From: Eubacteriaceae bacterium
GTDB taxonomy: Bacteria > Bacillota > Clostridia > Eubacteriales > Anaerofustaceae
NCBI GenBank assembly: GCA_017613995.1
Contig: JAGACT010000026.1
Span: 1 to 31,620, forward strand
Length of the DNA: 31,620 nucleotides
Direction of reading: 5' to 3'
In this document: positions 5,678 to 21,900 of the stretch, piece after piece
Layout: every line of letters starts with the position of its first letter
How positions within the stretch are numbered: the first letter of the stretch is position 1
Program-made: the position numbers and the translations under genes
The notes under the pieces: model-generated
Databases searched by the model: none
The model's input: the letters and a program-made list of their open reading frames with translations, nothing else
Told to the model about the DNA's origin: nothing

Positions 5678-5706
5678 TTGACATCACTTCAGTATTTATA
5701 TATAAT
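5678..5706 (+). promoter_or_regulatory. promoter of tRNA array 2
   Basis: Perfect TTGACA-17 nt-TATAAT. Confidence 0.9.
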
Positions 5707-5729
5707 GATTAAGCCTTTTGAAAAGGAAG

Positions 5730-5805
5730 GGTCGCTTAGCTCAGCTGGGAGAGCACCTGCCTTACAAGCCGGGGGTCACAGGTTCGAGCCCTGTAGCGAC
5801 CACCA
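5730..5805 (+). tRNA. tRNA-Val(TAC), variant copy
   Basis: Identical to 3852-3927 except A>C at 5770, giving a T-C mismatch in the anticodon stem. Confidence 0.92.
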
Positions 5806-13374: not shown

Positions 13375-14210
13375 CAGTTCTCCTCCTTCTCGGGCCTGCT
13401 GCCCGGGGAATTGACCAGCGCGTCCGTAAGGACTTTGGTGAGGGCCTTCGCGTCCAGGAAACGGGAGAGCTTTCCGTTGAGGGCGTAGCTTATGACTCCG
13501 GTCTCCTCGCTGACGATCACCACTATGGCGTCCGATATCTCGCTCATGCCTATGGCGGAGCGGTGACGGGTGCCTATCTCCTGGGAGAGGCTGCGGTTCT
13601 GGGTCAGGGGCAGGAGGCATCCCGCCGCCTTGATGCGGTGGTCCTCATTGCCTATGACCACGGCTCCGTCATGAAGCGGCGTGTTGGGGGTGAAGATGTT
13701 TATAAGGAGCTGCCTGGTGGGCACCGAATCCAGCAGGGTGCCGGTATCGATGATGTCCTTCAGGGAGGTGTCGCGTTCGAACACGATAAGGGCTCCCGTT
13801 TTGGTCTTCGACATCTCGCTGGCGGCGGACACCACCTGGTCGATGGTCTTTGTGATGCTCTCGGTCTCGTCCTTTCCGGAGAAGGACGAGATGAAGTCCC
13901 TGAGCCTGGTGGATCCTATCTTTTCCAGCGTCCTTCTCAGTTCCGGCTGGAACATGATGATGATGGCGATCAGTCCCACTGTCAGCAGGTTCCTGAGTAT
14001 ATAGTTGATCGTGACCAGCCCTATCCATCCGCTTATCTGGGTAAGGGCCACGATGATCAGTACGCCCTTAAGCACCTGTATGGCCTGGGAATCCTTGAGC
14101 CATTCCAGGAGGATGTAGATCACTGTGGCGGTGATGAGAATGTCGATCACCGACATGAAGTTCATGGCCGACATACCGGTGGATATGACGGATCTGAGCG
14201 TTTCCCACAT
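13374..14210 (-). CDS. cdaA: diadenylate cyclase CdaA
   Basis: Three TM helices, 'FQPELRR', 'IFTPNTPLHDGAV', 'GTRHRSA', 'VSEETG'. Confidence 0.96.
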   Translation of the reverse strand: MWETLRSVISTGMSAMNFMSVIDILITATVIYILLEWLKDSQAIQVLKGVLIIVALTQISGWIGLVTINYILRNLLTVGLIAIIIMFQPELRRTLEKIGSTRLRDFISSFSGKDETESITKTIDQVVSAASEMSKTKTGALIVFERDTSLKDIIDTGTLLDSVPTRQLLINIFTPNTPLHDGAVVIGNEDHRIKAAGCLLPLTQNRSLSQEIGTRHRSAIGMSEISDAIVVIVSEETGVISYALNGKLSRFLDAKALTKVLTDALVNSPGSRPEKEEN

Positions 14211-14245
14211 GGTGTTTCTCCTCGAAAAGTATCTCTTATCCTAAT

Positions 14246-14274
14246 ATTTTACCACAGCGGGGAGCTCTTATCTA
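14246..14274 (-). promoter_or_regulatory. promoter of the cdaA operon
   Basis: TAGATA-17 nt-TAAAAT with extended TG. Confidence 0.55.
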
Positions 14275-14325
14275 CCGGCATGCAGATTAAAATACCGTGA
14301 GGAACGCCGGAGGCTGGGCAGCGGT

Positions 14326-14363
14326 AAAAAAAAAGGACGGACAAGCCATGGGAGCTTTCCGTC
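14326..14363 (-). terminator. terminator of the small lipoprotein-like unit
   Basis: GACGGA-AAGC...GCTT-g-TCCGTC followed by T9 on the minus strand. Confidence 0.75.
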
Positions 14364-14502
14364 AAACGAATTCCCCGTCCCCCAGCTCCGCGGTGAAGGA
14401 TATCTTCGGTTCGGGCCCGTTTGTTTCTTTGCACTGGCCCTGCTCTGCGGAGCAGCCTCAGATAAACATAAGTGCAGTAAGTAAGATCAGTTTTCTTTTC
14501 AT
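14362..14502 (-). pseudogene. small lipoprotein-like ORF interrupted by TGA inside the lipobox
   Basis: MKRKLILLTALMFI*GCSAEQGQCKETNGPEPKISFTAELGDGEFV*; SD AAAGGA at 14511-14516; TGCTATAAT at 14540-14548. Confidence 0.6.
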
Positions 14503-14591
14503 AATAATGATCCTTTCGCTTGAACATGCTGTCCGCCATATTATAGCAGATACGGGGATGCGGTGCGGCTGAAAACCGCCAGGGAAACACT

Positions 14592-14618
14592 AAAAAAAGC
14601 GGGCGAAACGCCCGCTTT
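14592..14618 (-). terminator. terminator of the aldehyde dehydrogenase gene
   Basis: AAAGCGGGCG-TTT-CGCCCGC followed by T7 on the minus strand. Confidence 0.85.
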
Positions 14619-14635
14619 GAAGCAGCCTGAGATTA

Positions 14636-16063
14636 TCAGTTCTTGTTTACGCTGATCCACTTCTCGGAAGTGAACTTGTCGATGACCCAGTGGTTGTTGA
14701 ACCTGCCTACGCCGCTCATCTTCTCCCCGCCGAACATTACGTGGGGCTCGTCCGCTATGGACTGGTCGTTGATGTGGGTCATGCCGGTCTCGAGCCTCTT
14801 GGCCAGCTCCATGCCGTGGAACACGTCACGGGTGAAGATGCATCCGGAAAGACCGTACTCCGTGTCGTTCGCTATCGCCAGGGCTTCCTCCTCGTCCTTT
14901 GCCTTGATCAGGCAGATGACGGGTCCGAACACCTCGTTGCAGCAGGCGGGCATGTCGTTGGTGCAGTCCTTGAATACCCAGGGATAGATGTAGTTGCCCT
15001 CGGTATGGCCCTCGAGAGCCACGGTGGCTCCGGCCTTGATGGTGCCCTCGATGAAGCCCTCCACGCTCTTTACCTGGGTCTGGGAGATGACCGGTCCCAG
15101 GAACACTTCGGGATCGTGGGGATCGCCCACCTTGATGCCCTTGACCATCTCGACGTAGATCTTCGCGAACTCCTCGTAGACGGGCTCTTCGATGATGATC
15201 CTGTTGAGGGCCATGCATACCTGTCCCTGATTGAAGAAGGCTCCGAAGATCGCGCTGGCGGCGGCCTTCTCCAGGTCGGCGTCCTTGAGCACCATCATGA
15301 CGTTGTTGCCGCCCAGCTCCAGGGACACGTCCTTGATCATGTTGCCGGCGGTGGCGCCTATCATCTGGCCCACTTCGGTGGAACCGGTGAAGCTGATGGC
15401 GTCCGGGATCGGATGCTCTACGAAGTAATCGCCGATCTCGCTGCCCTTTCCGGCTATGGCGTTGTATACTCCCTTGGGGAAGCCGGCCTTCTCGAAGAAC
15501 TTGCCGATGATGAACGCCGTGCCCGGAGTGTCGGAGGCGGGCTTCAGGACCACGGTGTTTCCGCAGGCCACCGCGGGGACCACGCTTCTCATGGCCAGTA
15601 CCAGGGGCACGTTCCAGGGAGCGATGACTCCGATGACTCCCTTGGGGGCCTTGAAGGTGAAGTTCTCCTTGCCCGGGGTGTCGGAGGCTATGGTCTCGCC
15701 CCTCATGAGGTACGGGAACGCCATGGCCTGTTTGCAGATGTTGATGCACATGCCGATCTCGAAGTCTACCTTGGGCTTGGTGGATCCGCCTTCGCAGATC
15801 AGGAGGTCCGCCACCTCGTCGGCCATCTCGGCGATGGCGTTGCCCAGCTTCTCCAGCATGGAAGCCTTCTCGCCGGGAGTGGTCCTGGCCCATGCCGGGA
15901 ACGCAGCCCTGGCCGCGGCGTAGGCCGCGTCCACGTCGGCCTGGCTGGCCGCCTTGTAGGTATACAGGACGCTGTTGTCCATGGGGCAGGTGTCTTCCAT
16001 CACCTTGTCGCTGGTGCCTTCCACCCACTGACCGTCAATGTACAGTTTGTCGTATGCTATCAT
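14636..16063 (-). CDS. NAD(P)+-dependent aldehyde dehydrogenase, possibly benzaldehyde/vanillin-type
   Basis: 'IAPWNVP', 'KPASDTP', 'FTGSTEVG', 'LELGGN' Glu, 'FNQGQVCMA' Cys, 'EVFGP', 'FGGEKMSGVGRF'. Confidence 0.93.
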   Translation of the reverse strand: MIAYDKLYIDGQWVEGTSDKVMEDTCPMDNSVLYTYKAASQADVDAAYAAARAAFPAWARTTPGEKASMLEKLGNAIAEMADEVADLLICEGGSTKPKVDFEIGMCINICKQAMAFPYLMRGETIASDTPGKENFTFKAPKGVIGVIAPWNVPLVLAMRSVVPAVACGNTVVLKPASDTPGTAFIIGKFFEKAGFPKGVYNAIAGKGSEIGDYFVEHPIPDAISFTGSTEVGQMIGATAGNMIKDVSLELGGNNVMMVLKDADLEKAAASAIFGAFFNQGQVCMALNRIIIEEPVYEEFAKIYVEMVKGIKVGDPHDPEVFLGPVISQTQVKSVEGFIEGTIKAGATVALEGHTEGNYIYPWVFKDCTNDMPACCNEVFGPVICLIKAKDEEEALAIANDTEYGLSGCIFTRDVFHGMELAKRLETGMTHINDQSIADEPHVMFGGEKMSGVGRFNNHWVIDKFTSEKWISVNKN

Positions 16064-16105
16064 GTTTTTCTCCTTTCGGTTAATTGATTGTCTTTCTCTT
16101 TTAAT

Positions 16106-16135
16106 AGTATATAATAAGACGTCTTAATGATTCAA
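16106..16135 (-). promoter_or_regulatory. ALDH promoter with a palindrome in the spacer
   Basis: TTGAAT-18 nt-TATACT; perfect TAAGACGTCTTA at 16115-16126. Confidence 0.6.
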
Positions 16136-16169
16136 CTGTTTTTTCTTCCCGGGACATCATTTGGAAGCT

Positions 16170-16502
16170 CTACTTCTTCGGTTTCAGGACCAGTCCCAGG
16201 ATCCCGCTGATGCCGAGGGTCACCGTTACTATGATAAGTATCATCACGAGTCCCATGGGATCCCCCGCTATGGCCCCCATGACTCCAGAGTAGACTGCTT
16301 CGCCCAGGGCCATCAGGTGGGTGGTGACTCCGAATCCCCCTGCCTCGGCGATGGGACCCATGATCCCGAAAAAGCCGAGGACCGCTCCCAGGATGATGCC
16401 TCCCCTGAGGATAACCGGTACGGGGATGCGGACCTTTTCGATAAGAAGCTGCGCGATCACGGCGAACAGCGCCGGAAACAAAAATGCGTAAATGTAAGTC
16501 AT
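16170..16502 (-). CDS. divergent SpoVAC/SpoVAEb-family membrane protein (SpoVAEb-like)
   Basis: 110 aa; 'YAFL...FAVIAQLLIE...P..IL...ILGAVLG.FGIMGPIAEAGGFG.T...LGEAVYSG...LVLKPKK' follows the SpoVAEb pattern AF..GG.IC.IGQLL.D...FG.Y..F.E.AG.GA...FG..L..G...FKPK. Confidence 0.72.
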   Translation of the reverse strand: MTYIYAFLFPALFAVIAQLLIEKVRIPVPVILRGGIILGAVLGFFGIMGPIAEAGGFGVTTHLMALGEAVYSGVMGAIAGDPMGLVMILIIVTVTLGISGILGLVLKPKK

Positions 16503-16517
16503 TGTCTTTCCACCCTC

Positions 16518-16895
16518 CTAAAGCACGAAGGCCCTCAGAAGAGCCAGCAGGGCTCCCACGGCGAAGCCAGGGGCAATGACCCCCAGGATCTCTCCGAAGG
16601 CCCCCAGGACCGCTTTGCCCGCCTTCGCCCCGGCTCCTGCACGGGACGCGGCTCCTCCCGCCACGGTGGCGGAGAGCCCCGCGAAGGGAAAGAGCATCGC
16701 GGCGAAGCTCAGGCTGTTGAGCTTGTCAAACAGTCCGCTCACCCACAGGATGATGCCCAGCGCTCCCAGGGAGAGCATGACGGCGGGGGTGAGAAGGGGC
16801 ATTGTGAGCCCCAGGGCTGAATAGGCTCCCGCGAGGCACTGGGCCAGAAGGCCCATGCAGCCCGCGATCAGAAACGTATACAGGTACCTTTTCAA
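16518..16895 (-). CDS. divergent SpoVAC/SpoVAEb-family membrane protein (SpoVAC-like)
   Basis: 125 aa, TTG start after SD GGGAGG; 'TFLIAGCMGLLAQCL...YSALGL...SGLFDKL...FPFAGLS...VIAPGFAVG' follows the SpoVAC pattern AF.VGG.IC.IGQ...Y..LG...G.YDK...P.TGF...VI.YG. Confidence 0.65.
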   Translation of the reverse strand: MKRYLYTFLIAGCMGLLAQCLAGAYSALGLTMPLLTPAVMLSLGALGIILWVSGLFDKLNSLSFAAMLFPFAGLSATVAGGAASRAGAGAKAGKAVLGAFGEILGVIAPGFAVGALLALLRAFVL

Positions 16896-16914
16896 TTAAT
16901 TTTCCTCCCATCAA

Positions 16915-16945
16915 AAGCGGAGACGTGCATTGGACGTCTCCGCTT
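16915..16945 (-). terminator. 12-bp perfect hairpin, weak terminator or mRNA-stabilising stem
   Basis: AAGCGGAGACGT-N7-ACGTCTCCGCTT, only T4 on the minus strand, SD of the next gene 6 nt downstream. Confidence 0.55.
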
Positions 16946-16957
16946 AAATAAACTTAA

Positions 16958-18685
16958 TTACTTGTTATCCCTGTCCACAAGGGTCCCGTCGGAAAGCCTC
17001 CTGAAGCGGGAAACGAACTTCCAGCCCAGAGTCGGGTCGATGGGATGCACCTCATGGGCCTTGCCGCACATGAGGACGAAGTGGTAGTAGTCCTTTTTCT
17101 TCGTCTCGGGATCCGCGTAGAACACGTTGTCCACGTAGGCGTTGGAAGGATATCTCCTGTCGGGATAGAACACCTTCACGTCCATGCCCTCGACTCCCAC
17201 GGCGGGTTCCAGCCCGTCGCGGGTGGGGGAGTTCTTGATGCCGTTGAAATCCTTCCAGAAGCGGTACTGCAGCTCCTGGTTGGTCTCCTTGCTGATGGGG
17301 TATTCGCTCTCCCTGGTGCCGTAGAAGTACATCACCGGCATCTCGTAGGATTTTTCCTTCTGCTTTTTGAGGGCCCTCTTCAGCGGAGCCATGCCCGCCT
17401 TCGGATCGCTGGAAGGAGTGAACGCGGGGGGCTTGGGGGTGCCGGGCTTGGGCACCACGGCGGCATAGGTGCTGGGACGCACCGGCTTGAACTTGCCGAG
17501 GCTCGCGTAGGGGAAGGTGGAGTCTATCGGGCAGCTGGCCGCGATGAGCTCGGGATGCTCCATGGCAAAGAGCATTGCGAAGCCCGCCCCGTTGGAGAAG
17601 CCGCTGGTGTAGATGCGCTCCTCGTCGATGGGATACTTATCCTTCAGATACTTTATGAGTTCCTCGTAGTACTCCACGTCGTTGTAGGCGCCGGGCTTGA
17701 AGGTCAGGTTCCAGCTCACCAGGTTGGATGCGTAGCAGTATACGGTGATGAAGCCCTCCTTTTCTCCCAGGCGGTGGAACTTGGACTGCTCCGCCATCCT
17801 CAGGGGCGAATCCCCGGCTCCGTGGGACAGCAGGATAAGGGGCACCTTCTTTTTCGGGTTCTTTTTGACCGATGAGGGAACGCACTCTATCCAGGAATGG
17901 GCCAGTCCGCCGTTGTCGGGCAGCACGTGGTCGATGACGTAGTTGAAGCCCTCGTTCTCTGGATCGATGCGGCTGTCGGGCTCTCCCGCGGGGGAGATGT
18001 TGGCGCGCCTGACCTTCTTCATGAAGTCCCTATAGAAGCTTCTGATGAGCTCCCCTGTGAGTTCCTCGCTCTTAGCGTACTTCACGAACATGCTGGCGTT
18101 ATAGGGGCACTTCCAGGTGTTCTTTGCTGTCTTTTCGGCGCGGTTGGCGGTTATGTAGTAATTCCTGTAGGCCCTGCCGTTCACTATCAGGGCTGGCACG
18201 GCGGCTCCGGTGGCGTTGCAGGCCGCAGCGTCCTTCATCTCGCCTCCGAACAGCAGCACCGCCGCAGCCAGGTCCTGGCTGGGGCAGGTGGCTATCAGCG
18301 AGTTGGCCAGGGTGGCTCCGGATCCCTCGGCTATGATGAAGTGAAGGTCCGCTATGGCCTTCCAGCCGTTGGTATGGGTGCCGGAGAAGATGCTGGTCTG
18401 AAGGGCGGCTATGAGCTTCTCGTCGGCGGTCTGTTCCCTGGCTCCCTTGCTGACCCAGCCGTTTCGGCGGGGCACCGGGAAAGCCATCAGGGTGTGTCCG
18501 GTCTCGATGAGGGGGGCAAAGCCGCTTTTTTCGATGAAGGCCTCCACGCTTAGCCTGTCCGCCTTTTCCAGCAGCACCGTGACGGAGTCGCTCTTTACAT
18601 GATAATCGTATTCTCCCTTTGGATAGGCTACCCAGATCTCTCTGTTGCCGTCGGGAGTTTCCAGTTTTCTTTTCTCCAGTATCAT
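16958..18685 (-). CDS. two-module alpha/beta hydrolase (PHB-depolymerase/LpqP-like esterase), cytoplasmic
   Basis: C-terminal module 'PLILLSHGAG...GFITVY..SW..NDVEY..IDEERIYTSGFSNGAGFA..HPELIAA' and His in 'GKAHEVH'; N-terminal module has the same layout with degenerate 'IAEGSGA'; no signal peptide; SD AAGGAG. Confidence 0.8.
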   Translation of the reverse strand: MILEKRKLETPDGNREIWVAYPKGEYDYHVKSDSVTVLLEKADRLSVEAFIEKSGFAPLIETGHTLMAFPVPRRNGWVSKGAREQTADEKLIAALQTSIFSGTHTNGWKAIADLHFIIAEGSGATLANSLIATCPSQDLAAAVLLFGGEMKDAAACNATGAAVPALIVNGRAYRNYYITANRAEKTAKNTWKCPYNASMFVKYAKSEELTGELIRSFYRDFMKKVRRANISPAGEPDSRIDPENEGFNYVIDHVLPDNGGLAHSWIECVPSSVKKNPKKKVPLILLSHGAGDSPLRMAEQSKFHRLGEKEGFITVYCYASNLVSWNLTFKPGAYNDVEYYEELIKYLKDKYPIDEERIYTSGFSNGAGFAMLFAMEHPELIAASCPIDSTFPYASLGKFKPVRPSTYAAVVPKPGTPKPPAFTPSSDPKAGMAPLKRALKKQKEKSYEMPVMYFYGTRESEYPISKETNQELQYRFWKDFNGIKNSPTRDGLEPAVGVEGMDVKVFYPDRRYPSNAYVDNVFYADPETKKKDYYHFVLMCGKAHEVHPIDPTLGWKFVSRFRRLSDGTLVDRDNK

Positions 18686-18758
18686 CTTTTTCTCCTTGTG
18701 ATTAACTTGTGTGTTTGTTTTTTAAAGATCGAAGCGATACGCGGTATCTTACAGCTTT

Positions 18759-18787
18759 ATTATCGCACAAAACGGCATAAAGGTCAA
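18759..18787 (-). promoter_or_regulatory. promoter of the esterase-spoVA-like cluster
   Basis: TTGACC-17 nt-GATAAT with extended TG; sigma-A-like. Confidence 0.6.
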
Positions 18788-18883
18788 TCGAAAAGGACCC
18801 TAAATGGATAGGGGCTCCCGCACAGGAGGGTGCAAAAATCCTTCAGGAAGTTCCCCGGGAGCTGACCTAAAAGAGCGCTGTTC

Positions 18884-18912
18884 TGTTATAATCAGGATGG
18901 GCAGCTGCCCAT
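18884..18912 (+). promoter_or_regulatory. dnaE extended -10 promoter and 5' UTR palindrome
   Basis: TGTTATAAT at 18884-18892; perfect ATGGGCAGCTGCCCAT at 18897-18912. Confidence 0.5.
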
Positions 18913-18923
18913 GGGAGAAACAT

Positions 18924-21900
18924 ATGTCGGACGAAGGCATCAGAGTAGAGAACTTCACACATCTTCACATACATACCCAGTATTCGCTGCTGGACGGCTT
19001 CTGCCGCATCCCGGACCTGGTAAAGAAGGTAAAGGATCTGGGACAGCAGGCCGTGGCCATTACGGACCACGGCGTCATGTTCGGCTGCGTGGATTTCTAC
19101 AAGGAATGCCTCAGCCAGGGCATCAAGCCCATCATCGGCTGCGAGATCTACATGTCCGAGAGGGGCATGACCGACCGGGACGCCAAACTTGACCGCAAAA
19201 ACTATCACCTGATCCTGCTGGCCGAGAACATGACGGGCTACCAGAACCTGGCCAAGATCGTCTCCATCGCCTATACCGACGGCTTCTTCTACAAGCCCAG
19301 GGCGGACTACGAGCTTCTCAAGCGCTACCACGAGGGCATCATCTGCCTGACGGGCTGCATCGCGGGCAAGGTGCCCCAGGCGGTGATCGCCGGCAGCATG
19401 GAAAAGGCCGAGGAGGAGCTCAAAAACCTCATCGACTGCTTCGGGGCGGGCAACGTCTACGTGGAGATCCAGGACCACGGCATCATGGAGGAGCGCGTCG
19501 CCAACGAGGGGCTGCTGGAGCTGGCGAAAAAGTATGATCTCAAGCCCGTATGCACCAACGACGCCCACTACGTCAGCCGCGACGACAGCTATTACCACGA
19601 CGTGCTGCTGTGCATCCAGACCGGGTCCCTCTACGACGACCCGGAGCGCATGCGCTTCACTGGGGAGGAGTTCTACGTCAAGAGCGAGGAGGAGATGAGG
19701 CAGCTTTTCTCCTACGTGCCCGAAGCCGTGGAGAATACTAAGGAAGTTGCGAACCGCTGCAACGTGGAGTTCGAGTTCAACCACTACCACATCCCCGCCT
19801 ACGCCCTGCCGGAGGGCTACACCTCCGCCACCTATCTGAGGAAGATCTCGGAGGAGGGCCTGGAGAAAAAGTACGATACCATAACCGACGAGATGAGGGA
19901 GAGACTCGACTACGAACTGGGAGTCATCGACAAGATGGGCTTCAACGAGTACTTCCTGATCGTCTGGGACTATATAAAATACGCGAAGGACCATGACATC
20001 CCCGTGGGCCCCGGCAGGGGCAGCGGAGCCGGATCCCTGGTGGCCTACTGCACCGGCATCACCGAGGTGGATCCCCTGAAGTACGCCCTGATCTTCGAGA
20101 GGTTCCTCAACGAATCCCGAGTGTCCATGCCCGATATCGACGTGGACTTCTGCATCGACAACCGCTACAAGGTCATCGACTACGTCAAGGAAAAGTACGG
20201 GGAGTCCAACGTCGCCCAGATCATAACCTTCGGTACCCTGGGGGCCAAGCAGGCCGTCAGGGACATCGGCAAGGCCATGGGCATGAGCACCTCCGAGGTG
20301 GACCGCATCGCCAAGGAGATCCCCTCCCATCCCGGCACCACCATAGACTCAGCCATAGGGGAGGCCCCGGAGCTGAGAAAGATGATCGAGGAAGACCCGA
20401 ACATCGCAAAGCTCATCGACACAGCGAAACATCTGGAGGGAGCCCCCAGGCACTGCTCCAAGCACGCGGCGGGGGTGGTCATCGCGGACCGTCCCGTCAT
20501 GGACTACGTGCCCCTGTACGTGGTGGAGGGCACCCCCGTCACCCAGTACTCCATGGTCACCGTGGAGGAGCTGGGGCTTCTCAAGATGGACTTTCTGGGG
20601 CTTAGAAACCTCACGGTCATCAAGGACACGGTCAGGAGCATTAAGCGCAGCCAGGGCAAGGACGTGGACGTCGACCACCTGCCCCTGGACGACCCCAACG
20701 TATACGCCACCATCTCCAGGGGGGACACCAAGGGTGTCTTCCAGCTGGAGAGCGCCGGCATCACCGGGTTCATGATGAACCTGCAGCCGGACTGCATAGA
20801 GGACCTGATAGCGGGCATCTCCCTGTACCGTCCCGGACCCATGCAGTACATCGGGGAATACGTGGAGAACAAGCGAAACCCCATGGGCATCAAATATCTG
20901 TGCCCCCAGCTGGAGAGCATCCTGGACGTGACCTACGGCTGCATGGTCTACCAGGAGCAGGTCATGCAGATAGTCAGGGATCTGGCGGGCTTTTCCATGG
21001 CGGAGAGCGACAACGTGCGCCGGGCCATGAGCAAGAAGAAGGCCAAGGTCATCAAGGCCTACCGGGAGGACTTCGTCCACGGCTCCCCGGAGAAGAACAT
21101 CCCCGGATGCGTCCGCAGCGGCATCTCGGAGGAAGCGGCCAACAAGCTCTACGACCAGATGGAGGCCTTCGCCTCCTACGCCTTCAACAAGTCCCACGCC
21201 GCGGCCTACGCCGTGGTCACCTACCAGACGGCGTACCTGAAGACCTACTATCCCGCCGAGTTCCTGGCGGCTCTGATGACCAGCGTCATCGGCAGCGACG
21301 ACAAGCTCATCGGATACGTGAAGCTTCTCAAGGAAAAGGACATCGAGCTTCTGCCCCCGGACATCAACGCCTCCTACGACACCTTCACCGTCAGCGACGG
21401 GAAGATCCGTTTCGGGTTTTTAGCCATCAAGGGCCTCGGTGAGGGCGCCATAGCGGAGATCACCGACGTGAGGGAGCGAAAGGGCCTCTTTACCGATTTC
21501 GACGACTTCCTGGACAAGCTGGAATACACCTCCGTCAACAAAAAGGCGGTGGAGAACATGATAAAGGCGGGCTGCTTCGACAGCCTGGGACACACCAGGA
21601 GGGAGCTGCTGGCGGTGTTCTCGGAGAAGATGGAAGCGGTGCAGAGGGAACGAAAGAACCTGGTGGAGGGCCAGCTGAACCTCTTCGACATGCTGGGAGG
21701 GGTCTCCGCCGCCATACCCAGGACCCAGGGCACCCGCTACATCAAAGAGGAACTGCCCCTGGAGGAACTTCTCCGCTACGAGAAGGAATCCCTGGGACTG
21801 TACCTGTCGGGCCATCCCCTCATTAAGTACGAAGACAGCGTCAGGCACCTCGTCAACTGCGACGCGTCCATGCTGCAGGTGGGCGAGGACGGAGAGATGC

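Follow-up and report, generated by a model that had tools for sequence, protein, structure and literature searches.

A SpoVAC/SpoVAEb-like membrane protein pair without SpoVAD in a gut Clostridia bacterium, a candidate vegetative small-molecule transporter

Introduction

The membrane core formed by SpoVAC and SpoVAEb has been known from spores alone, a setting that makes it hard to study, and both its mode of action, as a channel or a carrier, and the contribution of SpoVAD are debated. Here we describe a SpoVAC-like and a SpoVAEb-like gene that stand side by side, with no spoVAD, between an esterase gene and an aldehyde dehydrogenase (ALDH) gene on contig JAGACT010000026.1 of a Eubacteriaceae bacterium metagenome-assembled genome (MAG; GCA_017613995.1, labelled G000). 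The contig, 31,620 nucleotides (nt) long, is the whole stretch that was analysed and is referred to as the window. The closest described system is the SpoVAC-SpoVAD-SpoVAEb complex of Bacillus subtilis, which transports dipicolinate (DPA) (Gao et al. 2022, PMC9186386). Second spoVA loci have also been described, namely spoVA2 of the Bacillus cereus group, with the components C2, D2, Eb2 and NJ2 (PMC13059800), and spoVA2mob (PMC5133452).

The window pair resembles the B. subtilis proteins (PMC9186386) in its PF03862 membership, the predicted fold of its C-like subunit, the C-then-Eb gene order and the Eb-like K-P-K ending. It differs in that SpoVAD, Spo0A, SpoIVA and SpoIIID were not found in its genome, that its subunits fall into separate clades, and that its C-like protein lacks the N-terminal extension of ∼20 residues (125 amino acids (aa) versus ∼150 aa). 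It is also located behind an esterase gene with a sigma-A-like promoter, not beside a sporulation sigma factor gene. With spoVA2 and spoVA2mob the window pair shares the character of divergent, extra C and Eb copies that work as a unit. Those loci, however, belong to sporulation, retain D alongside an added cap protein and transport DPA, whereas the window pair has neither D nor a sporulating host. A third group for comparison comprises pairs and fusions that also lack D (P0010, P0011, P0014, P0015 and P0020, and those of genomes G642, G817, G818 and G820-G822). These belong to the same two clades, are adjacent or fused and occur in non-sporulation contexts, but they are only 23-35% identical to the 125-aa protein, have no esterase neighbour, and some of their hosts sporulate (G642 has Spo0A). 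This D-less branch is apparently undescribed. A survey of open-access full text yielded no paper on PF03862 proteins in non-sporulation operons or beside corrinoid methyltransferases, and no description there contradicts an initial sequence-only reading of the window, which knew of no vegetative system built on a SpoVA C/Eb pair.

Results and discussion

Two adjacent SpoVAC/SpoVAEb-like proteins

The 125-aa and 110-aa proteins encoded by the pair are SpoVAC/Eb-like. A PF03862 hidden Markov model (HMM) search, proposed by the sequence-only reading as a check, was passed by the 125-aa protein (29.0 bits versus a cut-off of 25, profile positions 2-116 of 117) and not by the 110-aa protein (20.1 bits), though the latter matches TIGR02839 (spoVAE) with an E-value of 3.8e-7 and its orthologue in the related genome G003 scores 25.3 bits against PF03862. 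Both proteins are far from the equivalog cut-offs for the sporulation proteins (17.5 versus 164 for TIGR02838, 30.4 versus 131 for TIGR02839). The 110-aa protein ends in KPKK, as canonical SpoVAEb proteins do, and, its own small group left aside, its closest relative is a canonical SpoVAEb with 32% identity; these canonical relatives are encoded in sigma factor-spoVAC-spoVAD-spoVAEb loci.

From 40 sequences, AlphaFold2 (AF2) produced a model of the 125-aa protein with a pLDDT of 91.4 that consists almost entirely of transmembrane helices with short loops. When compared to AFDB/Swiss-Prot, the only confident matches of this model were SpoVAC and SpoVAEb (B. subtilis SpoVAC at a TM-score of 0.76 and SpoVAEb at 0.65-0.69, both with probability 1.00), the next match having a probability of 0.2. 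A Foldseek search of the same model against the PDB returned nothing at E <= 0.001; the SpoVAC/Eb fold has no solved structure. In the ESM Atlas, clusters of PF03862 are the neighbours of each of the two proteins. A complex prediction for the two proteins, folded without alignments, scored 0.21 versus a mark of 0.34, a value that weighs neither for nor against their binding.

The gap between the two genes is 15 nt, which leaves no room for a spoVAD gene, and the ribosome-binding site of the 110-aa gene overlaps the stop codon of the 125-aa gene. The latter has a TTG start codon with GGGAGG 8 nt upstream, and its orthologue in locus L006 has ATG at the same codon. Taken with the PF03862 and TIGR02839 matches, the AF2 fold and the lack of any PF07451 match in the genome, this gene arrangement agrees with the sequence-only description of a divergent SpoVAC/SpoVAEb-like pair without SpoVAD.

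A lineage apart from the canonical SpoVA proteins

An exhaustive profile search seeded on the 125-aa protein and run over 1.84 billion cluster representatives identified 39 relatives at E <= 1e-3; a word-indexed search with the single protein gave four. Most of the 39 are ∼129 aa long, and several of 254-340 aa are fusions of a C-like half to an Eb-like half. These relatives, their partners, and the canonical C and Eb proteins of 38 Clostridia genomes (the window's own family among them) were placed in a tree (IQ-TREE, LG+C20, 111 rows and 135 columns, five very long branches left out; support is given as ultrafast bootstrap/SH-aLRT). The C versus Eb split is supported at 99/93. On the C side, a non-canonical clade of 39 rows that includes the 125-aa protein (100/98) stands apart from the canonical C clade (94/92), and on the Eb side a non-canonical clade of 11 rows that includes the 110-aa protein (100/97) stands apart from the canonical Eb clade (66/92). 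Both members of the pair thus lie outside the canonical clades when analysed with true SpoVA proteins, and the nesting within those clades that the sequence-only reading had named as refuting was not seen. The topology indicates that the C/Eb duplication predates the split between canonical and D-less proteins, and that the pair is not recently derived from the family's own spoVA genes.

The 125-aa protein is sister to the N-terminal half of the fusion P0010 (100/98), and the 110-aa protein is sister to the C-terminal half of the same fusion (100/90). That one fusion supplies the sister of each window protein shows that the two subunits co-evolve as a unit and can be a single polypeptide. In every neighbourhood that was visible, the non-canonical C-like gene has an Eb-like gene immediately after it or fused to it, and SpoVAD never accompanies it. 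The window pair shares all of these features, being an adjacent C-like and Eb-like gene without D with both products in the non-canonical clades, and it departs from canonical SpoVA channels in its lack of D, its clades, its low equivalog scores and a host without sporulation markers. The tree is unrooted and so does not reveal which lineage is ancestral, and with proteins this short it does not resolve the deep branching within clades. Because the search that collected the non-canonical rows started from a profile of the window protein, their coherence may be exaggerated; this bias does not explain the exclusion of all 38 canonical C sequences.

The D-less lineage is rare. Among 399 class-wide genomes, a clade-typical score with the C-like profile (above ∼88 bits) was reached in G000 alone, canonical SpoVAC proteins scoring 45-77 bits. 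Among 400 phylum-wide genomes there was one further genome, G642, and within the order of G642 the profile found the lineage in six of 14 genomes. The Eb-like partners in several D-less pairs have no Pfam match and score 58-78 bits with an Eb-type HMM built here (for example, L056 2179-2556 and L014 568-885), so that Pfam-based annotation under-counts such pairs.

Company kept by D-less pairs elsewhere

Components of corrinoid-dependent methyl transfer are present in ∼7 of 11 independent contexts of D-less pairs. A URO-D-like enzyme and a PucR-type regulator are neighbours on the P0010 contig and in G642, G821 and G822, with the order URO-D-C-Eb and a 4-nt gap in G821. B12-binding proteins and a GntR regulator adjoin both P0011/G818 and P0020, joined in P0011/G818 by a URO-D-like enzyme and DUF1638. 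An MttB-superfamily methyltransferase and a sigma-54 activator are found in G820. The remaining contexts are a molybdopterin oxidoreductase with a ferredoxin (P0014), a gene for an MFS transporter (P0015) and housekeeping genes (G817). Coordinates of the methyltransferase-linked pairs are 3889-7805 in L144 (G820), 6697-10458 in L146 (G821), 1-3492 in L145 (G822) and 3997-9211 in L011. Corrinoid-dependent methyl-transfer systems act on small methylated substrates that need to be imported. The presence of Spo0A in G642 means that D-less pairs also occur in sporulating organisms and are not simply a leftover of lost sporulation.

A host lineage without detectable sporulation genes

The window's MAG is 1.87 Mb in size and 79% complete, and was compared with three congeners, G001 (75% complete), G003 (86%) and G002 (96%). 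The only PF03862 genes of G000 are the window pair. Searches for PF07451 (SpoVAD) found no match in G000, G001 or G003, and a match of 419 bits in G002. Spo0A_C, SpoVAD, SpoIVA, SpoIIID and SASP were found neither in G000 nor in G001, and the first four of these were not found in G003. The genome of G002, in turn, carries Spo0A, SpoIVA, SpoVAD and SpoIIID along with a canonical spoVAC-spoVAD-spoVAEb locus, and neither the variant pair nor the esterase was found in it. Most other genera of the family also carry canonical spoVA loci. Because five markers are missing from G000 and four from each of the other two, and all but SASP are present in the sister species, sporulation genes are likely to be absent from the host lineage. 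A sub-lineage of a sporulating family therefore appears to have lost sporulation, and it is this same sub-lineage that carries the variant pair. The dpaA gene (TIGR02853) is absent from all four congeners, sporulation-gene-bearing G002 included, and so says nothing about sporulation.

The search for spo0A and a canonical spoVA locus suggested in the sequence-only reading thus found neither in G000. Its proposal that the pair has left sporulation is supported by the missing markers and by the placement outside the canonical clades, with the reservations that G000 is 79% complete and that expression in vegetative cells is something we infer. Metagenomes from animal gut, bovine gut and manure contain DNA of the window, and G003 is an uncultured Clostridiales MAG from the rumen.

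Purifying selection on a fast-diverging island

Three loci carry the esterase-pair order, namely the window, L005 (in G003) and L006, and the window was compared with the other two. DnaE, the esterase, ALDH and CdaA show 91-93% aa identity, with dN/dS (the ratio of nonsynonymous to synonymous substitution rates) of 0.08-0.12 and dS of 0.46-0.70. For the two small proteins the corresponding values are 57-68%, 0.20-0.34 and 0.93-1.18. A dN/dS of 0.20-0.34 places the pair under purifying selection, which argues for a function. Invariant columns number 58 of 125 and 58 of 110, and the frames are intact and of identical length in the three lineages. Chance hydrophobic open reading frames (ORFs), which were considered as a source of the two genes, are rejected given the HMM, fold and selection evidence.

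The pair diverges several-fold faster than its neighbours, with a sharp boundary at the esterase stop codon and the hairpin that follows it. The divergence island spans 16170-16895 in the window, 5747-6476 in L005 and 1517-2243 in L006. Contigs from bovine gut and manure (runs X4 and X10) show the reverse of the G003/L006 pattern, being ∼99% identical over the 5' part of the ALDH gene and the pair (window 15396-16670) and only 85-90% identical over the esterase (window 17223-18403). This suggests that pair alleles move by recombination relative to the esterase and that the locus is a mosaic.

Gene order and transcription signals at the locus

The pair is part of a row of four genes on the minus strand (Table 1), the ORF coordinates agreeing to the base with the four co-oriented genes of the sequence-only reading. 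The sigma-A-like site which that reading had named as the only promoter found upstream of the pair was recovered, before the esterase gene, by a consensus scan; it (18787..18759) is the best promoter-like match of the region and is a pattern match only. A simple upstream pattern search did not find a sigma-F, sigma-G, sigma-E or sigma-K consensus. Two signals not mentioned earlier are the promoter-like site in the spacer before the ALDH gene and the hairpin between the esterase and the pair. Both hexamers of the former are found at the same place in L006.

Table 1. Genes and candidate transcription signals of the esterase-pair-ALDH block, in window coordinates
Feature	Coordinates	Strand	Description	Basis
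Two-module esterase gene	16958..18685	-	575 aa	ORF; PF10503, NF050058
SpoVAC-like gene	16518..16895	-	125 aa	ORF; PF03862
SpoVAEb-like gene	16170..16502	-	110 aa	ORF; TIGR02839
ALDH gene	14636..16063	-	475 aa	ORF; PF00171
Sigma-70-like promoter upstream of esterase	18759..18787	-	TTGACC-17-GATAAT, extended -10 TG	Consensus scan, 10/12
Terminator-like hairpin	16915..16945	-	12-bp stem, then short T-run (TTTT)	Folding; kept in three loci
Sigma-70-like promoter in 106-nt spacer before ALDH	16106..16135	-	TTGAAT-18-TATACT	Consensus scan, 9/12
Intrinsic terminator after ALDH	14596..14618	-	10-bp stem (7 G-C pairs) and T-run	Terminator scan; sequence read directly

The hairpin (16945..16915) follows the esterase stop codon and precedes the ribosome-binding site of the 125-aa gene, its T-run abutting the GGGAGG motif. 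The minimum free energy of the region is -23.6 kcal/mol (z -4.2). In G003 and L006 a hairpin is present at the same place (L005 ∼5705-5731; L006 ∼1477-1502), where the inner stem bases differ and still pair, and the order esterase-hairpin-pair is kept in all three loci. Since the hairpin abuts the ribosome-binding site in each, there is no space for a promoter between hairpin and pair. Transcripts of the pair would thus either come from upstream and pass a leaky terminator or attenuator, or start at a promoter within the 3' end of the esterase gene. We regard the hairpin as probably being an element of this leaky kind.

The esterase and the ALDH

HMM matches to the esterase are limited to residues ∼270-490 (NF050058, E 4.8e-22; PF10503, 25.4 bits versus a cut-off of 23, residues 279-384 only). 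Its AF2 model (pLDDT 92.5) contains two alpha/beta modules, and no hydrophobic signal sequence could be read at the N-terminus, in keeping with the cytoplasmic two-module esterase of the sequence-only reading. The C-terminal module is of the CE1/polyhydroxybutyrate (PHB) depolymerase/feruloyl-acetylxylan esterase type and has the nucleophile motif G362-F-S364-N-G366; this G-F-S364-N-G elbow and H544 are invariant among 40 homologues. Feruloyl and acetyl-xylan esterases are the nearest PDB sequences, and the top Foldseek structures are 9byu/8daj, 9j07 and 8iy8 (E 1e-14 to 1e-9 for 9byu, 9j07 and 8iy8). The module shares its fold and G-x-S-x-G elbow with CE1/PHB-depolymerase esterases (PDB 9j07, 8iy8, 7xrt, 8daj), from which the 575-aa protein differs in an extra N-terminal alpha/beta module of ∼250 aa, the lack of a signal peptide and an identity of just 13-18%.

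Members of this esterase family, at 30-50% identity, are found widely in Clostridia and Lachnospiraceae. Among species-representative genomes, a PF03862-like gene lies within 7 kb in one of 79 esterase loci, that of G003. Sampled neighbours at the other loci are esterases (one with CBM48), beta-lactamase-fold hydrolases, a CBM9 protein and a sugar-isomerase-like barrel, a setting that would fit intracellular processing of esterified plant material.

The ALDH matches PF00171 at 533 bits over profile positions 1-461 of 461 and is, by this match, a predicted NAD(P)-dependent aldehyde dehydrogenase. No NCBIfam equivalog cut-off was reached, the best being HpaE (387 versus 638). It follows the pair in the window and in L006 and is absent from that position in G003, where a terminator-like hairpin and then an unrelated 376-aa gene are found (L005 6477-7841). 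The 376-aa product has no confident Pfam match, only a sub-threshold one to PI3/PI4-kinase. Judged from these loci, only one narrow lineage has the esterase-pair link, and the ALDH is tied in more loosely still.

A candidate small-solute conduit of growing cells

The reading we favour, while holding it to be about evenly balanced between right and wrong, is that the pair constitutes a two-subunit, D-less membrane complex of the SpoVAC/Eb lineage that acts as a small-solute channel or carrier in growing cells of this asporogenous Clostridia bacterium of the rumen or cattle gut. The 125-aa and 110-aa proteins would form a pseudo-symmetric heteromeric membrane complex, as in the C/Eb core of the dipicolinate transporter (PMC9186386; PMC13059800), and this complex would work without the cytoplasmic SpoVAD plug. 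Transcription would start at the sigma-A-type promoter of the esterase and probably reach the pair by read-through of the leaky hairpin, with the extent of read-through setting the level, and the two genes are probably translationally coupled. Made in growing cells, the complex would conduct a small organic solute connected to the esterase, either its ester substrate or its acid product. The family and clade of the two proteins, the predicted fold of the 125-aa one, the absence of D and of sporulation markers, the purifying selection and the recurrent pairing or fusion together support describing the pair as a putative vegetative small-molecule transporter.

Several observations weigh against this reading. 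Canonical systems need D for import, a difficulty for the gating or energising of a D-less pair. If the hairpin is a full terminator, the pair is left without an obvious promoter. The three esterase-linked loci are close relatives, making the kept gene order weak evidence, and none of the 78 other esterase-family loci carries the pair. The 110-aa protein is under the PF03862 cut-off, and its ESM Atlas model is of low confidence (pLDDT 0.51), although the first structural row of that model is SpoVAE at a TM-score of 0.69. G003 has one partial SASP match, and the incompleteness of G000 makes the absence of sporulation genes probable, not proven.

A broader version of this reading, which we put forward tentatively and consider possible but somewhat less likely to be right than wrong, concerns the lineage as a whole. 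The D-less pairs and fusions may be an unrecognised family of two-subunit small-solute transporters in vegetative Bacillota, serving chiefly import for corrinoid methyltransferases (URO-D-like, MttB) and, here, an intracellular esterase. The DPA channel would then be a sporulation-specialised sister branch that added the SpoVAD plug. The D-less lineage as a whole is of more interest than the window instance. If true, a sister lineage without D would show the C/Eb core to be a general small-molecule conduit and not an invention of sporulation, and would provide a simpler, D-free system in which C/Eb conduction could be followed in transport assays and structures with simple constructs. Two areas that lack a transporter would gain a candidate for it, namely the anaerobic metabolism of methyl groups (quaternary amines, methoxylated compounds) and the intracellular metabolism of esters in the rumen. 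The label "stage V sporulation protein AC/AE" that annotation pipelines assign to such proteins misleads the scoring of MAGs for sporulation.

Alternative explanations

The pair could instead work on its own as a membrane channel or an efflux system, its solute being perhaps an osmolyte, an ion or a toxic metabolite, with no tie to the esterase and only an incidental place among housekeeping genes (dnaE, cdaA-cdaR). This would account for an esterase family that normally occurs without the pair (0/78 other loci), has a precedent in the D-less pair among housekeeping genes in G817, and agrees with a pair that evolves as its own unit, both between lineages (57-68% versus 91-93% for the flanks) and on the metagenomic contigs (∼99% for the pair, 85-90% for the esterase). 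We nevertheless consider it unlikely, as the hairpin at the ribosome-binding site in three of three loci points to transcription from the esterase side, and tight linkage to catabolic enzymes is seen for most of the other D-less pairs, in one case across a gap of 4 nt.

The sequence-only reading had gone further and joined all four genes into one unit. In that scheme a small aromatic or heterocyclic acid or aldehyde is set free by the esterase, moved by the pair and oxidised by the ALDH. The genes are indeed co-oriented, the ALDH gene follows the pair without an intervening terminator in both the window and L006, and the canonical family moves an aromatic dicarboxylate, DPA (PMC9186386). Feruloyl and cinnamoyl esterases, which produce aromatic acids, are among the nearest solved relatives of the esterase. 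The same fold also spans acetyl-xylan esterases and PHB depolymerases, and since the product of a feruloyl esterase is an acid rather than an aldehyde, the ALDH step is left without an obvious substrate. The ALDH itself fits no specific subfamily. The survey of neighbourhoods did not bear this pathway out. The gene adjacency behind it is confined to three close relatives with flanking proteins 91-93% identical, the other 78 esterase loci lack the pair, and its distant D-less relatives adjoin mostly corrinoid methyltransferases, not esterases or ALDHs. The ALDH has its own conserved promoter-like site and is replaced in G003, where a terminator ends the pair, by the 376-aa gene. Such a pathway is accordingly rather improbable.

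Less probable again is a non-transport function, such as anchoring the neighbouring soluble enzymes to the membrane, sensing for them or assisting their assembly. The neighbours of D-less pairs are soluble and varied (esterase, URO-D-like, MttB, molybdoenzyme), which makes a common membrane partner conceivable, but conduction of a small molecule is what the only members of the fold to be characterised do (PMC9186386), and proteins that are nearly all transmembrane helix with short loops offer little docking surface to soluble partners.

That the pair is a non-functional relic of a spoVA operon can be given next to no credence. In its favour are the apparent loss of sporulation in a lineage whose congener G002 keeps spoVAC-D-Eb, and the evolution of the pair at several times the rate of its neighbours. 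Against it, the dN/dS of the pair, its equal-length intact frames in three lineages and its invariant columns (58/125 and 58/110) speak for constraint, it is not sister to the family's canonical C/Eb but shares clades with D-less pairs from other orders, and, unlike the canonical loci here, it does not adjoin a sporulation-type sigma factor gene. A decayed spoVA operon is rejected given the tree and dN/dS.

Flanking sequence

The four-gene block is flanked by dnaE on one side and cdaA-cdaR on the other. Between the ALDH terminator and cdaA, a stretch of ∼385 nt (window 14211-14595) contains no convincing gene. An Rfam scan of 13500-19500 placed no family in this non-coding stretch and gave only sub-threshold matches over the ALDH terminator. 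A promoter-like site is located inside the gap at 14274..14246. At the other end, the dnaE ORF as listed starts 40 codons upstream of the conserved start of the PHP domain (MSDEGIRVENF...; window 18804-18923, read from the sequence). The true dnaE start is probably near 18924, which would give dnaE and the esterase gene a common divergent intergenic region of ∼240 nt.

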